Shown: piece by piece, positions 3,570 through 48,721 of the stretch | Layout of the letters: each line of letters opens with the position of its first letter | Numbering within the stretch: the stretch's first letter is position 1 | IMG/VR virus record: IMGVR_UViG_3300020112_000204 | Coordinates: 8,003-72,002 of that record | Source of the DNA: a virus | Lineage: Duplodnaviria; Caudoviricetes | Direction: 5' to 3' (one strand) | DNA length: 64,000 bases | Program-made: the position numbers and the translations under genes | The notes under the pieces: model-generated | The model's database searches: none | What the model was told of the DNA's origin: nothing | What the model saw: the letters and a program-made list of their open reading frames with translations, nothing else

Positions 3570-4250
3570 TCATTTTACATTAACCATTTTATGAATCTGG
3601 GGCAGAAAACGAGTTTCAAACCCAAGGTCAATACCACCTGTTTCATCGAGGTAGTACTCAAGCATTTTCTGATATCCCGAATCCTCAACAGTGCCAGCCT
3701 CAGGCTGGAATATGAGCACAGTGTCCTTATCAAACGCATAATCGCTCATATACAGAAGAGCCTCGTGCATATCCTGCTCGTTAGCAATTACGAACTTAAC
3801 CTGAACCTTAGTCAGATTAGACCATTCAGCCGTATGAGTGTACTCAGCAGAAACTTTGTTCTTAGCTGAGCCAAGCTTAGGGCTAATAGCCATAAGGTCG
3901 AACATGAGCCTAGGTGCACCGAACTTAGTCGGAGCTATAGTGCCATTAGTCTCAACTGCTACCTTATAGCCCATACCTCTAAGGCTGATACAAAGGCTCT
4001 CGAGTTCCTCACCATTCTGAATCAGGGGCTCGCCACCAGTTAAGATGACATACCCGATACCTTGATGCTCCTTGACTTTTTCGATAAGCTCGATAGAGTC
4101 ACATTCAAAAGCTACTGTGTTCCATTCTGTGTCACACCATTCACAGTTCAAGTTGCAACCCGCAAACCTGATGAACAAACACCTCATACCTACATCGATG
4201 CCCTCTCCCTGAACGGAAACGAACATATCATTTACCTTAAACTTCTGCAT
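3570..4250 (-). CDS. queE: 7-carboxy-7-deazaguanine synthase (radical SAM)
   Basis: SVQGEG, FIRFAGCNLNCEWCDT, LTGGEP, ETNGT, ISPK, PQIHK. Confidence 0.95.
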   Translation of the reverse strand: MQKFKVNDMFVSVQGEGIDVGMRCLFIRFAGCNLNCEWCDTEWNTVAFECDSIELIEKVKEHQGIGYVILTGGEPLIQNGEELESLCISLRGMGYKVAVETNGTIAPTKFGAPRLMFDLMAISPKLGSAKNKVSAEYTHTAEWSNLTKVQVKFVIANEQDMHEALLYMSDYAFDKDTVLIFQPEAGTVEDSGYQKMLEYYLDETGGIDLGFETRFLPQIHKMVNVK

Positions 4251-6492: not shown

Positions 6493-6663
6493 TTACTCCT
6501 TTTCCATAATGAATTCCTTAGTGCTGATTACATTAACACAATCAGCACCTGTGGCTTCCTTAACAGCCTCTTTGATACGCTTTGCCTCTTCTTCCTTGGT
6601 CTCGCTCTCGAGGTAGCTTATGCAGGTAACTTCAACATTGTGAATACGAGTTATCTCAACCAT
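6493..6663 (-). CDS. Hypothetical 56-aa protein (MVEITRIHNVEV...)
   Basis: Hand-translated; GGAGG RBS, start overlaps csp stop. Confidence 0.55.
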   Translation of the reverse strand: MVEITRIHNVEVTCISYLESETKEEEAKRIKEAVKEATGADCVNVISTKEFIMEKE

Positions 6664-9080: not shown

Positions 9081-9122
9081 AAGGGCTACACTGGGAGACA
9101 TCACTCCCAGTGCTTTGCCCTT
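9081..9122 (-). promoter_or_regulatory. Nested stem-loop in 5' leader
   Basis: CACTGGGAG/CTCCCAGTG (9 bp) inside AAGGGC/GCCCTT. Confidence 0.55.
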
Positions 9123-9160: not shown

Positions 9161-9573
9161 TTACTTTTACTAAGAAAAGCCTCTAAAAGCATCTCAAAAT
9201 CTCCCTCAGAGATTACAACTAGTGGCTCTGCATCTTTCATCTCTATCTGCAAGAATGGGAATAGCTTTCTTTGGTCTACACACTCCTCTGAAATCTTCTT
9301 CCACATCTGAGCCGTAATACTAAAGGAGCTATGAATCGTTTGCTTGTTGTCGCCTAGAGCAATATCTCCTATCTTGACATCACCCTTTGCGAACCACAAA
9401 GCCCCGCTAACAGGCTGTTGCTTTGCTCCAAGGTCTTTCATTCTTTTAGCAAAGGACTTCTCCTGTTCATTAGCTTTCTGCTTTACCGACTTTTCTCCAG
9501 AATCCAGAAACCACTTCGGAGGCTTAGCCAATACCTTGTACCTGCTCTCTGAGCGTCTGTCTGCACTTTCCAC
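9157..9573 (-). CDS. Second resolvase-like PD-(D/E)XK protein
   Basis: QEK, PVSGA, KGD, DNKQT, SIT..MWKKI, P-F-L-Q-I; true start may be TTG 9531. Confidence 0.6.
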   Translation of the reverse strand: MESADRRSESRYKVLAKPPKWFLDSGEKSVKQKANEQEKSFAKRMKDLGAKQQPVSGALWFAKGDVKIGDIALGDNKQTIHSSFSITAQMWKKISEECVDQRKLFPFLQIEMKDAEPLVVISEGDFEMLLEAFLSKSN

Positions 9574-9784
9574 AGATAGGCTTACTCAGAAGTATAAACT
9601 CATCTGCTATATCTCCACAGAAAACACAAGACTTGGAGTACTTCCTAATCTCTATCTTATCCCCTTTAAGGGTCATCTCGAGATTTTCACCATCAGATAT
9701 ACCTAGGGAAGTCCTGTACTCTTTCGGGATGACAATTCTACCTATATCGTCAACCGCCCTGACTACTCCACTATTCTTCGCCAC
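9524..9784 (-). CDS. abrB: AbrB-family transition-state regulator
   Basis: GVVRAVDDIGRIVIPKEYR..LGI, C-terminal CVFC/CGKC typical of clostridial AbrB. Confidence 0.88.
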   Translation of the reverse strand: MAKNSGVVRAVDDIGRIVIPKEYRTSLGISDGENLEMTLKGDKIEIRKYSKSCVFCGDIADEFILLSKPICGKCRQTLREQVQGIG

Positions 9785-10904
9785 GATTCTCTCCCTCGCT
9801 TTCTCCTGCGACTTCTTTGGGCTTGGTATGCACTGCTATCTTCATAACCTGTGCATACAGTCTGTTAAGCTCTTCGGGATAGTCCCTGAGGTACTTAACA
9901 ACATTGTCCTGACCTTGAATACTGTTTTCTTTACCTGCTAAGAAGTAATATGCCCCTCGTCTTTCGATTACGCCGTACTTGATAGCATACCGTACAATCT
10001 CCTCAGCGGTGTCAATGTCTCCAGCTTTGAATGTGTACGGAGTGTCATTAAAGAAAAACCTGAACTCACCAGTTCTCTTCGGAGGAGCCGTCTTATTCTT
10101 TGTGGCGATTGCCTTAATCCACTGACCTACAACTTCCTCTACCTGAGTTCCGTTCTTATCCATCTTGAACTGAATCCAGTCTCCTCTTTTCAGTTCAAGA
10201 ATAAGTGATGCAGAGTACTCCTGACCCTTACCTCCGGGCAGGGTGTTCGGATTTCCATACATAACTCCTATCTTTTCACGAATCTGATTTATCAGGATTA
10301 CTGTAGGAGCTTTCTCTGAGACATCACTCATATCCCTACCGTTCATACCGCCTGACAGTTTTCTAAAGAACTTATTATTCATCTTAGCGGCATCGCCCAT
10401 GAACAACTTATTCATAGACTCATCTGCTTCTGCCTGAGGAACAAGGGCGGCAATCGAGTCAAGGACTATAAGACCGACATCATCTGTCTTTGTCATTACA
10501 TCTGCGATGTCTAATGCCTGCTCACCGAACTCAGGCTTGCACACCATAAGAGTTTCAAGGTCTACACCTAGCTTCTTAGCCCATTCATCCTCAAATGCTC
10601 CCTCGGCATCAATCCATACACACTTCTTGAAAACTCTGTCCTCGCCATTCTCATAGCGTTCCTTAAACAACCTCTGGGCATTTGCCACTATCTTAGTAGC
10701 TACTGCGGTCTTACCACAGCTATACCCACCTGTCAGTAGGGTGACTCTGCTCTCAGGGATACCACCACCCGTAACGATGTCAAGAGCTAATGAGCCTGTG
10801 GGGATTCGGGTAATCTCAAGAGCCTTAGCTTCGCTAGCTCTCATAACTACTCCCGCTCCGAACTTCTTGTTCAGTTCCTTAATCACTGCATCAATATTTG
10901 CCAT
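9771..10904 (-). CDS. recA: RecA recombinase
   Basis: IPTGSLALD, GGYSCGKT, IDAEG, LDSIAAL, INQIREKIG, PGGK. Confidence 0.97.
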   Translation of the reverse strand: MANIDAVIKELNKKFGAGVVMRASEAKALEITRIPTGSLALDIVTGGGIPESRVTLLTGGYSCGKTAVATKIVANAQRLFKERYENGEDRVFKKCVWIDAEGAFEDEWAKKLGVDLETLMVCKPEFGEQALDIADVMTKTDDVGLIVLDSIAALVPQAEADESMNKLFMGDAAKMNNKFFRKLSGGMNGRDMSDVSEKAPTVILINQIREKIGVMYGNPNTLPGGKGQEYSASLILELKRGDWIQFKMDKNGTQVEEVVGQWIKAIATKNKTAPPKRTGEFRFFFNDTPYTFKAGDIDTAEEIVRYAIKYGVIERRGAYYFLAGKENSIQGQDNVVKYLRDYPEELNRLYAQVMKIAVHTKPKEVAGESEGENRGEE

Positions 10905-24430: not shown

Positions 24431-24460
24431 AATAGGAGAGGCATTAAGCCTCTCCCTATT
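24431..24460 (-). promoter_or_regulatory. 12-bp stem-loop directly before the MazF RBS
   Basis: AATAGGGAGAGGC-TTAAT-GCCTCTCCTATT; no U-tract. Confidence 0.55.
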
Positions 24461-30729: not shown

Positions 30730-31174
30730 TACTCTCGAATCCTTTCAACTGCCCAACAATTCTCCTGCACTCACCCTCGCAGTATTCTAAATCCTTAGGG
30801 AACTCATCATCGAAGAACACGAAACTGTCTCTCATAGACTCTATGAGCCTAATGTGCTGAGGCGAGTCGCTAAAGTACTCAAGCCCCTTATCAAAGTCAG
30901 GCTTATCTCCCCAGTGGGCACAATCGAAGCCAATCCACCAGATGCCCTCTGATTCCACGCTAATAAGTGAGCTATCACTGTAGGTCAAGCATCCGTGGCA
31001 CTCAACGGGAATGTTCTCATACATCTCTCCATAAAACGGGTGAGACTTGGGTACTCCTACATACCCGCATCTGTGGCAAGTGGGCATGAACTTAACTACG
31101 CAAGTGTACCCATCAAGTTCAAAAATGCTCTCTACTATGTCTTTCATCATATTATCTTCCTCCGTATAATGCAA
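30716..31174 (-). CDS. Conserved phage hypothetical protein
   Basis: HRCGYVGVP..HP, VECHG.LTYS, WWIGFDCAH. Confidence 0.7.
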   Translation of the reverse strand: MHYTEEDNMMKDIVESIFELDGYTCVVKFMPTCHRCGYVGVPKSHPFYGEMYENIPVECHGCLTYSDSSLISVESEGIWWIGFDCAHWGDKPDFDKGLEYFSDSPQHIRLIESMRDSFVFFDDEFPKDLEYCEGECRRIVGQLKGFESNGQN

Positions 31175-32873
31175 ATATTATTCTCTGAACGAGTTTTCCG
31201 ATGGCTTCAAAATGCTCTTTCGTGTTGTCCAGTGTTCCATAGATGACATGAGCCATCTCGTGAGCGATTGTGTCAATATTCATAAGAACGAACTTCATGT
31301 CCTCTGCGGTGAGGTCACTAGCGTCATCCTTAAGACCTTTGTACTCAGCCAGATACTTGCGATTGATAAAAATCGAGTTACCCTTGGCTACTGCGAATGA
31401 CTCGAACTCTTCCTTGCTGACCTCATCCCCATCAATATTGATTACTCTGTAGCTTCTAACATCTGCGATAGAGAACATATCATATCGACCTGCTACTGAA
31501 CGACCTATCTCTGCTAGAATCTTGTAGGCTCTGATTTCAGCTTCGTTCTGAGGCGTGATGTTCTTGAAGTCTACACGCATAGTTACTAGTTTAGGCAACT
31601 CACTAATGTGCCTAAATCTTCTGTCCTCCATAAGGACTTTCTCCTCAAGTACATTTCTTATTTCTACAACGGGAATGTTGTAAAGCTGAGCCAACTGAAT
31701 TGCATCCATCATCGTGGGTACCTCAGAGGTCTTAACATAGAACCCATACTTAAGCTCTTTAACGCCAATACCCGTTTGCTTGGACTCCTTTACGGATACT
31801 GGGATATGGGTTATAGCTGATTCAGAGCTAAAATCAGCAACAGAGCCAATCTTAACTCCTGATACTTTTCTAACCCCTTCACCTGAACTGGGAGTAGACT
31901 TGTGAGTCTTATGCTCACGCTCTTCCTCATCCTTAGAGTCTGATAGAAACTTGAACTTTACTAATCCTCTGTAGTCACCAATACTCAGATATCTTTCTAC
32001 GGTGTCTGCATACTTAGCGATGTCCTCATCCGAGCCCCTTCTCAGAACTGAAATGAACATCTTCTTAACCTCTTCCTTAAGGCTCTCGGTCATCCTATCA
32101 TAGTCGCTATCATAAATCACATCTTTCCTGTCAGGACTTCTGAGACTGATTTTGCCATCAACAAAATTGAGGACACCTCTTACTCCCCACATGGGCTGGT
32201 TTTTTACAAATCTTGAATAAGCGAATGTTCTAAGGCTATCATCATAGCCATCTGCTCCCCACTTGAAAGGCTGAATCCAACCCGTGAACCATTCATTGCT
32301 AACCTTCTTTGCGAAGATGTTTTCTGTGTCGGGTTCAGTTCCAGCGAACTTGACCCTTTCACCATTGATGCTCATCGTTGGGGACTTGATGTACTTTCCC
32401 ACTTCTCTGAACCTTGATATCGTTGCCCACTGCGAGTACTCATTAGTCATATCACTAAGGACTACTACAAATCCACTTCTTCTAGTACTGCGTCTGACCT
32501 TGATGCAATCCGTGGTCTCTTTCTCGAACATTTCCTTTACATCAAATACAGCATCAAATCCAATGCTGGACACCTTAATCGTGTCTGCTACCATCATAGT
32601 AGAGAAAAATCCCTCTCCAAAAGGATTCTGAGACGCTACTGACTCGTCCCATCCACTTGAGGACTTATCGAAAAGGACTTGGGGGTCGGAACACCCAACC
32701 CCGTTGTCCTCTATGATTACTCGGTCATATTCAACTGTTACCTTGATGTGCGTTGCCTTTGCTCTCTGGGCATTCTGAACCAATTCATCCACCCAAGTCA
32801 ACCTGTCTGCATAAGTGCTATGTCTGAGCTTTTTCATCTCATTGAGTACATTTACCTTAACTTCCATTACCAA
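31152..32873 (-). CDS. GHKL (Hsp90/MutL-type) ATPase with C-terminal HExxH motif
   Basis: ELVQNAQRA, EDNGVG, GEGFFS; C-terminal AHEMAH...H-F. Confidence 0.75.
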   Translation of the reverse strand: MVMEVKVNVLNEMKKLRHSTYADRLTWVDELVQNAQRAKATHIKVTVEYDRVIIEDNGVGCSDPQVLFDKSSSGWDESVASQNPFGEGFFSTMMVADTIKVSSIGFDAVFDVKEMFEKETTDCIKVRRSTRRSGFVVVLSDMTNEYSQWATISRFREVGKYIKSPTMSINGERVKFAGTEPDTENIFAKKVSNEWFTGWIQPFKWGADGYDDSLRTFAYSRFVKNQPMWGVRGVLNFVDGKISLRSPDRKDVIYDSDYDRMTESLKEEVKKMFISVLRRGSDEDIAKYADTVERYLSIGDYRGLVKFKFLSDSKDEEEREHKTHKSTPSSGEGVRKVSGVKIGSVADFSSESAITHIPVSVKESKQTGIGVKELKYGFYVKTSEVPTMMDAIQLAQLYNIPVVEIRNVLEEKVLMEDRRFRHISELPKLVTMRVDFKNITPQNEAEIRAYKILAEIGRSVAGRYDMFSIADVRSYRVINIDGDEVSKEEFESFAVAKGNSIFINRKYLAEYKGLKDDASDLTAEDMKFVLMNIDTIAHEMAHVIYGTLDNTKEHFEAIGKLVQRIIFALYGGR

Positions 32874-34314: not shown

Positions 34315-34494
34315 TTAACCTAACGCAATGATGTTTACTACTACTGTGAATTCCTTGCTTCTGTACCCGACTTTAGCAAGCTTGTTGTATACGGACACAA
34401 TCTGGAAGAAAACTTCTGCTTGCTCCTCCCAATCTGATGCCGTGTAATACCTGTCCACCAATTCACTGAGGATTGCTTCTACTTCTGAGTTCAT
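34315..34494 (-). CDS. First early gene, 59-aa hypothetical
   Basis: Start reset to MNSEV after AAAGGAG. Confidence 0.55.
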   Translation of the reverse strand: MNSEVEAILSELVDRYYTASDWEEQAEVFFQIVSVYNKLAKVGYRSKEFTVVVNIIALG

Positions 34495-34509
34495 ATCTGA
34501 CTCTCCTTT

Positions 34510-34529
34510 CCTGTGGTTATAACCACAGG
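34510..34529. promoter_or_regulatory. Perfect 20-bp palindrome CCTGTGGTTATAACCACAGG
   Basis: Abuts RBS of first early gene. Confidence 0.6.
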
Positions 34530-34911
34530 TCAAGGGGCAACATTAGCTTTGCCCCTATCCCTCTAGTTACAACTAGGGACAGATTGCTGAACGCCTACTT
34601 GGGGTCACGCCCGCACCCCGAACCAACTCTAGCTTCCTTTATCCGAGTCTAGTCCCGAGACCTTTCGGCTATCCACACTATAACTTTCATCAGCTTCGGC
34701 AGTCATTTCAATCTGTCTATCCTGTTGTTCCTCTCCCTTTCGGCTTCATCGCCTACCCCTCGGATTGTACCACATCTGTGTCGATTACGAGTGTCGGGTT
34801 CGTTTGCTGAATCAGTATTTGTTAGGCTTTAATTAACCTATATCCTATCTTTGACTTATCAAAGACACGAGATAACTTAATCGTTGCTTTACCTTGTATA
34901 AGTGGTGTTTT
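34530..34911 (-). ncRNA. Candidate structured ncRNA / long 5' leader
   Basis: No credible ORF; multiple hairpins and long-range complements (9, 7, 6 bp); class not recognised. Confidence 0.45.
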
Positions 34912-34917
34912 TATTTT

Positions 34918-34972
34918 ATTATATAATAGAATTATGAATAGGGTATGAATTTTCTATGAATTTTCTGTGAAT
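34918..34972 (-). promoter_or_regulatory. TATAAT -10 preceded by four 11-bp-phased TTCA(C/T)A repeats
   Basis: TTCACA-N5-TTCATA-N5-TTCATA-N5-TTCATA-N9-TATAAT; no canonical -35. Confidence 0.65.
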
Positions 34973-34994: not shown

Positions 34995-35026
34995 AAAAAA
35001 CGAGTACCCTGTCAAAGGTACTCGTT
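34995..35026 (-). terminator. Intrinsic terminator ending late operon
   Basis: AACGAGTACC/GGTACTCGTT stem followed by T-run, after endolysin. Confidence 0.85.
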
Positions 35027-48500: not shown

Positions 48501-48514
48501 TTGACTCCACCTCC

Positions 48515-48721
48515 TTACTTATTCTTAATCTTATCGTATTCCCTGTTTTCAGCCTCTTTTTGCTTAATAATCTCGCCAACCCACATACCCCTTTCTTTAC
48601 GAGGGCATTTGTTGACATCCACTCTACCCCAATGGTAGATATAAGCAAGTATATGGCGTTCCTCTCGGCTGCGTTCTAAGTCTACATTAACTGCTATATC
48701 GTGTTCGAGGAAGCCATTTAC
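48515..48721 (-). CDS. Tail chaperone extension (probable -1 frameshift product)
   Basis: 68 open codons in -1 frame, no start/RBS: ...EERHILAYIYHWG...KERGMWV.EI. Confidence 0.6.
   Translation of the reverse strand, partial: VNGFLEHDIAVNVDLERSREERHILAYIYHWGRVDVNKCPRKERGMWVGEIIKQKEAENREYDKIKNK

Follow-up and report, generated by a model that had tools for sequence, protein, structure and literature searches.

A GC-enriched stretch, probably a folded untranslated leader, at the head of the replication-side genes of an uncultured Firmicutes-type phage

Why does a tightly packed phage genome leave several hundred nucleotides free of genes directly in front of its replication-side genes? The question was raised by a stretch of 64 kb, here called the window, which comprises bases 8003-72002 of the 72-kb linear IMG/VR record IMGVR_UViG_3300020112_000204 (CheckV completeness 59%) and carries every long ORF on the minus strand. 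A first-pass annotation had described about 380 nt of it as a non-coding, highly structured leader or ncRNA at the start of the early operon, and as the only large gene-free stretch of the genome. The latter statement turned out to hold. With ORF cut-offs of 35-60 aa, the 506 nt from 35039 to 34534 form the sole gap of at least 250 nt in the 64 kb, and the second-largest gaps have lengths of 214-217 nt. A stretch of 217 nt without an ORF of at least 60 aa (48501-48717) immediately precedes the tape-measure gene (1163 aa), a site at which the frameshifted extension of a tail-assembly chaperone is usually encoded.

The non-coding nature of the stretch was borne out as well. The coding strand of the leader does not contain any ORF of at least 26 aa, neither with the standard code nor when any single stop codon is read through. 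Since no frame was opened by reading any one stop through, a gene concealed by stop-codon recoding could be excluded. No protein remnant was detected in the leader by tblastx against 284 loci (3.75 Mb), and neither a tRNA nor a tmRNA was found. The plus strand does not encode a plausible peptide, which makes a type I toxin unlikely. The GC content of the leader core (34830-34510) is 49.5%, compared to 42.9% for the genome, which places it in the top 0.7% of the windows, and its observed/expected ratio of CpG is 0.82, compared to 0.53 for the genome. Composition is the strongest global signal of the leader. Because neutral intergenic DNA is AT-rich in this phage, the enrichment points to selection, for which RNA structure would be the simplest target. 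The composition supports the view that the leader resembles structured RNAs in long intergenic regions, which tend to show such a GC enrichment.

The surroundings of the ORF-free stretch, which is bounded by the terminator of the lysis block and an ORF of 59 aa, are given in the following lines.

36339-35962, minus strand: holin gene, matching a PHROG holin family
35978-35040, minus strand: endolysin gene with Amidase_2, SPOR and CW_7 domains
34999-35026, minus strand: intrinsic terminator closing the late/lysis block, a 10-12-bp stem followed by a T run
34918-34971, minus strand: promoter with four TTCAYA repeats at an 11-bp period (34971-34933) and TATAAT (34923-34918)
34495-34911, minus strand: untranslated leader of about 417 nt, no ORF under any code tested, no Rfam match
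34507-34503, minus strand: Shine-Dalgarno (SD) motif AGGAG
34315-34507, minus strand: SD motif and first ORF (59 aa, ATG at 34494), without detectable family

The holin and endolysin genes point to a Gram-positive host. The 59-aa ORF is followed by several ORFs without known families and, further downstream, by the genes for a MazG-like protein, a family A DNA polymerase (polA), an O-like initiator, a DnaC-like loader and a DnaB-like helicase. Placing the leader at the start of an early operon is thus a fair description of the gene order, with the leader at the head of the replication-side block and behind a promoter; we infer the timing itself. One of the first genes of the operon (31152-32873) encodes a protein of 573 aa in which a weak GHKL/HATPase_c N-terminus is the sole recognisable domain.

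The promoter region has a GC content of 18%, and the -10 core is TATTATATAATAAA. The four 11-bp-phased TTCAYA repeats occupy the place of the -35 box. Transcription would start at about position 34911. The promoter, together with its repeats, recurs at about 3665-3706 of G000:C1 (in the region of about 3665-3740, or about 1500-1580 of L002), after the dpdA terminator, and at that site the leader comprises just about 45 nt before its gene. The reuse of the same promoter with a short leader indicates that the promoter is a functional unit and that the long leader is specific to the early operon. Neither a terminator-like site on the minus strand nor a run of at least four U was found within 34911-34495, and therefore the leader would be co-transcribed with the downstream ORFs. 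Tandem promoters were not found in the leader. By these signals, the leader is probably transcribed.

Comparison with Rfam 15 yielded no match at the gathering thresholds in the whole window. At E<=10, the 4227 models gave five matches at chance level (14-18 bits), none of which covers the leader core. The classes covered include riboswitches, leaders, ribozymes, GOLLD/ROOL/OLE/EGFOA/HEARO, pRNA, 6S, tmRNA and RNase P, and hence the element is uncatalogued. The searches for homologues gave a similar picture. No alignable leader was retrieved by blastn against GenBank phages or by pattern scans of IMG/VR with an apparent 5′ motif and the -10 core. Protein-anchored scans of IMG/VR, for which the 187-aa and 59-aa neighbours, polA, a DnaC-like alignment, P0003 and P0004 were used, revealed one syntenic relative with a non-alignable leader. 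A metagenome scan with a polA alignment as query retrieved generic bacterial Pol I alone, the genome collection contained nothing above 40% identity, and the 187-aa neighbour matched itself alone among 5.8 billion proteins. Searches with the leader against the 284 loci with nhmmer and tblastx were also without a match. For polA, the best identity among GenBank phages was 38%, and nearer relatives were found in ENA/Logan (P0003 with 78% identity, 4.6 kb; P0004-P0009 with 53-59%). The comparison of leaders covered phage, IMG/VR, metagenome and genome collections. Judged by these searches, the phage is isolated in sequence space.

The sole syntenic relative in IMG/VR, which is represented by the loci L004, L063, L066 and L156, has tail, polA (50% identity), initiator, loader (61%) and helicase genes in the same order as the window. 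It contains an ORF-free leader of 540 nt behind a promoter and directly before polA. This leader is also GC-enriched (top 1.7% of its locus), has a folding z-score of -4.8, and ends with a hairpin just before the ribosome-binding site. The 16-nt -10 core of the L004 promoter is identical to that of the window, and the promoter as a whole (TTTACA-17-TATAAT) agrees with the consensus at 11 of 12 positions. A canonical TTTACA -35 box is present where the window has the TTCAYA repeats. The leader sequences themselves are not related: their best local alignment scored 21 versus a shuffle mean of 20.7, and nhmmer did not find anything. By the same scores, the 5′ motif TACAAGGTAA...ACGATT, which seemed to be common to L004, was not significant. 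In the absence of significant shared sequence, a shared sequence-specific function is without support. Between the near-identical leaders of L063 and L004, a 7-nt insertion and a single substitution in a loop are the sole differences, too few for a test of the fold.

Next, the potential of the leader to fold was considered. The pairing motifs and loops listed in the first-pass annotation were all found on the minus strand where it had placed them, and dinucleotide-preserving shuffles of the leader (n=300) were used to quantify chance expectation. The hairpins and the predicted fold comprise the following elements.

34831-34882, minus strand: imperfect 5′ hairpin of about 52 nt, predicted, pair probability 0.84-0.97 (partition function)
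34799-34755, minus strand: small hairpin, predicted
34569-34728, minus strand: central domain, predicted, with an interrupted closing helix of about 24 bp (34728-34698 / 34595-34569, probability 0.85-0.98)
34619-34601, minus strand: GGGGT/ACCCC hairpin, predicted
34533-34556, minus strand: hairpin with a G+C-rich 8-bp stem and an 8-nt loop
34510-34529, minus strand: perfect 20-bp palindrome with an 8-bp stem and a TATA loop, directly abutting the SD motif

The adjacent pair of local hairpins with 8-bp stems at the 3′ end exceeded the chance level: two were observed versus a shuffle mean of 0.05, a number that was reached in 1 of 300 shuffles. They are located 0-25 nt upstream of the SD motif. 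Perfect hairpins of at least 8 bp are rare, with 13 occurrences in the 64 kb, and several of these lack a U tract and closely precede a ribosome-binding site. Perfect hairpins of 8-9 bp without U tracts were also observed near gene starts at 24435-24455, 6521-6548 and 9089-9112 of the window, and the first of these (24455-24435) is situated just upstream of a ribosome-binding site, like the leader pair. Gene-start hairpins that lack a U tract may be message stabilisers or processing sites and a habit of this phage.

The palindrome at 34510-34529 could form an RNA hairpin or could be a DNA operator, as perfect palindromes of this type are typical of dimeric repressor sites. A near-copy of its positions 34528-34511 (15 of 18 nt, 0.02 expected) is present at 2293-2310 of the window, inside a gene of the deazaguanine operon, and could be a second operator or a coincidence. 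The palindrome and its near-copy are in line with an explanation in which the stretch acts at the DNA level, as an operator or as a site for replication or packaging between the late and the early genes, or in which it has no function and is a spacer that was tolerated after gene loss. The location where the late module meets the early one and the complete turnover of the sequence between related phages are also compatible with this explanation, and so is the O-like initiator gene, in which no iterons were found, so that the origin is unplaced. However, the leader contains no direct repeats, iterons or AT-rich unwinding region, it is GC-enriched, unlike neutral or origin DNA, it lacks the protein remnant that was sought by tblastx, and its location between a promoter and a ribosome-binding site makes transcription probable. 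Taken together, we regard an exclusive role as DNA, or no role, as unlikely. A replication origin within the leader is unlikely for reasons of composition and of repeats, the latter being confined to the promoter. A "direct terminal repeat" of a complete, distantly related phage of 105 kb and 52% GC (G001, IMGVR_UViG_3300037423_000600; L195/L196) was uninformative with regard to a genome terminus, because it is a 127-bp overlap of the assembly ends that cuts an ORF and that indicates a circular assembly instead of a true terminal repeat.

The other pairings of the leader were less distinctive. TCTTTGA/TCAAAGA is part of the apical stem of the 5′ hairpin, and its perfect 7-bp core alone is not above chance. 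The long-range helices of 9, 7 and 6 bp are present, but they did not exceed the shuffles: a perfect 9-bp complement was reached in 47 of 300 cases (16%), and five pairs of at least 7 bp, compared to a mean of 3.0, were reached in 61 of 300 cases. Therefore, the pseudoknot that had been deduced from the crossing of the 9-bp and 7-bp helices is unsupported. The 9-bp complement GACAGATTG/CAATCTGTC is contained in the predicted closing helix of the central domain, and the central fold competes in the prediction with the local hairpin CTAGTT/AACTAG. In addition, nucleotides 34815-34809 were predicted to pair over 7 bp with 34503-34497 at the 3′ border of the SD motif (probability 0.78), but pairings of such lengths are expected by chance.

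The minimal free energy of 34930-34490 corresponded to a z-score of -3.7, that of the antisense strand to -3.56. The background consisted of 112 windows of the same size from the genome, mostly coding, with a mean z-score of -0.76, a standard deviation of 1.43 and a minimum of -4.3. When the last hairpin was omitted, the z-score of the leader weakened to -2.1 (rank 22 of 112), showing that most of the thermodynamic signal stems from the 3′ hairpins. The description as "highly structured" is thus only mildly true.

Two CC-GAAA-GG loops had also been proposed. The duplication of the motif is real: GCCGAAAGG occurs twice in the leader, 75 nt apart, and is absent elsewhere in the window on both strands (0.18 expected). 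The positions of the two copies are as follows.

34736-34745, minus strand: first copy of AGCCGAAAGG, just two flanking pairs possible
34661-34670, minus strand: second copy of AGCCGAAAGG, 3-bp stem, predicted probability 0.82

As tetraloop hairpins, the two copies are unconvincing, because the stems have lengths of only 2-3 bp. A hammerhead-like CUGAUGA...GAAA was rejected, since it lacks helix II and has no Rfam match. A CsrA-like GGA sponge was rejected as well; GGATA occurs five times versus 0.8 expected, which is not significant after correction for 1024 five-letter words.

The main idea of the first-pass annotation was that the leader is a discrete structured ncRNA of a new class, which would be cut from the early transcript or accumulate from its 5′ end and act in trans or as an architectural RNA. 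Several features, among them the duplicated motif, are compatible with such an RNA. The region is long, intergenic and GC-enriched, which is the classic signature of structured RNAs, the L004 leader is alike, no known family matches, and the position is retained in the syntenic relative. The interrupted helix of about 24 bp is predicted to close the central domain, and a weak complementarity of 80 nt exists between the 5′ and 3′ ends of the leader (3 of 150 shuffles). However, this RNA would lack its own 3′ end because no terminator is present, L004 as the sole syntenic relative does not share any block of sequence with it, the long-range helices are at chance level, the GAAA loops have the very short stems described above, and alignable homologues were not retrieved from the phage, IMG/VR, metagenome and genome collections. 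A discrete ncRNA is thus rather improbable. With little confidence, one could also imagine a fast-evolving, lineage-restricted class of large structured RNAs at the late/early junction (417 nt here, 540 nt in L004), for which fold, GC content and position are retained while the sequence is not, and which would act as RNAs themselves rather than as passive mRNA leaders, e.g., by binding a factor of the host or the phage after processing of the early RNA.

The element had also been proposed to be an antiterminator or riboswitch-like. This would make it a regulated leader, either an attenuator controlled by a ligand or a protein, or a site for processive antitermination of the boxA/Nus type along the long operon. 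The consensus sequence of boxA is UGCUCUUUAACA in E. coli and AUGAUCUUUGAAA in B. subtilis (PMC13753749). The leader contains TCTTTGA, the 7-nt core of the B. subtilis boxA-like consensus, at 34865-34859, about 47 nt from the putative transcription start, and the predicted pairing of 34815-34809 beside the SD motif would likewise be compatible with regulation, for instance with a translational riboswitch or leader, in which a helix masks the SD motif or the start codon in one conformer. However, the complete site matches the B. subtilis consensus at only 8 of 13 positions, TCTTTGA has ten copies on the minus strand, with a chance of about 0.07 that one lies in the leader, and boxA-like 12-mers occur in the window at shuffle frequency and the leader is not among the sites. 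In addition, the motif is situated in a hairpin arm, whereas boxA is bound as single strand, and neither a partner of the boxB or boxC type nor an N-like protein was identified. An antitermination signal is therefore not backed by the statistics in the window. A riboswitch of the terminator/antiterminator type would have nothing to act on, because the leader lacks a terminator with a U tract, and a match to a riboswitch or leader family of Rfam is also lacking. U-tract terminators are nearly absent from the coding strand over 20 kb downstream. In summary, control by attenuation or antitermination is quite unlikely for the window.

In the relative, a boxA-like core is strong. The L004 leader contains GCTCTTTAA at 9385-9393, a single copy in 19 kb that agrees with the E. 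coli boxA consensus (PMC13753749) at 10 of 12 positions. The boxA-like sequence, GCUCUUUAA, is found once in the 19 kb, inside the leader. Two terminator-like hairpins are present at L004:9665-9790, a long one followed by U6 near 9716 and another at 9768-9790 before the ribosome-binding site of polA. This combination suggests attenuation or antitermination control in the L004 phage. It is in favor of a regulated leader in general, but the boxA of L004 is a lead for the relative and not a finding for the window.

Which explanation is in best agreement with all these results? We tentatively favor, with a probability of about 0.42, a cis-acting structured mRNA leader that would serve stability, processing or translation. 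In this explanation, an uncultured Firmicutes-type phage would begin its replication-side genes, an early or middle block, with an mRNA whose 5′ part of approximately 417 nt is untranslated. The TATAAT/TTCAYA-repeat promoter, which closely follows the lysis terminator, would drive the transcription of this mRNA along the minus strand. The 5′ hairpin, the central domain and, most securely, the two stem-loops at the ribosome-binding site would shape the fate of the message. The hairpins might shield the 5′ end after endonucleolytic processing, and they might control the access to the first start codon. The roles in stabilization and processing are suggested by analogy only. The observations in favor of a cis-acting mRNA leader are the non-coding sequence, the promoter upstream, the 3′ hairpins beyond chance, the GC enrichment and the long leader in the same slot of the relative. 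On the other hand, the folding stability does not stand out from that of coding windows, the antisense strand folds equally well, and the last hairpin, a perfect palindrome, could equally be a DNA operator.

A cis-acting leader would have well-known counterparts. In phage T7, an early leader of about 400 nt separates promoter A1 from gene 0.3, and the RNase III site R0.3 is located just before the gene; these facts on the untranslated T7 leader reportedly go back to Dunn and Studier in 1983 and related work. The early leaders of T7 and lambda and the early RNAs of Bacillus phages (SP82) carry hairpins for processing and stability. The T7, lambda N and SP82 early leaders and the window leader have in common a promoter of the host type that opens the early block, an untranslated region of several hundred bases, stable hairpins right before the first ribosome-binding site, and co-oriented genes. 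In contrast, there is no sequence relation, and the window leader does not have tandem promoters. An RNase III site of the T7/lambda type would be an irregular double helix of about 20 bp or more ahead of the first gene. The 8-bp hairpins are too short for RNase III, and the sole helix of about 24 bp is predicted, long-range and interrupted and has a core at chance level. Leaders with antitermination of the rRNA type (boxA, NusB/S10; PMC13753749) and lambda nut share with the window the placement in the first 100 nt of the leader of a long operon, but the boxA-like core is weak in the window, at chance frequency, sequestered in a hairpin arm and without the partners mentioned above.

Large RNAs from other sources were also compared. 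GOLLD, ROOL and EGFOA are large ornate RNAs linked to phages and Firmicutes (bioRxiv 10.1101/2024.12.08.627333). The window leader resembles them as a long, GC-enriched and ORF-free candidate RNA in a phage of a Gram-positive host, but it is shorter, gave no sign of conserved tertiary motifs and did not match any of the 4227 Rfam models, including theirs, at E<=10. Fremin et al. 2023 (PMC10690425) described candidate cis-regulatory structured RNAs across IMG/VR on the basis of covariation among many homologues. The leader is similar to these candidates in being an uncatalogued structured element upstream of phage genes on an IMG/VR contig, whereas it has a single relative in IMG/VR, which is non-alignable.

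Taken together, the leader is a reasonable candidate and not a discovery: it is ordinary in kind, probably folded and uncatalogued. It is nevertheless a clean case, as no second non-coding island interrupts this tightly packed genome. The same promoter is also used without a long leader in this genome, which offers a natural control, and the relative provides a positional counterpart. To our knowledge, the roles of folded leaders of early operons are established for lambda nut, HK022 put and the RNase III sites of T7 alone. If the leader governs the stability, the processing or the read-through of the mRNA, it would reveal the way in which the replication genes of this phage are timed, and if it is a stand-alone RNA, it would represent a new class.
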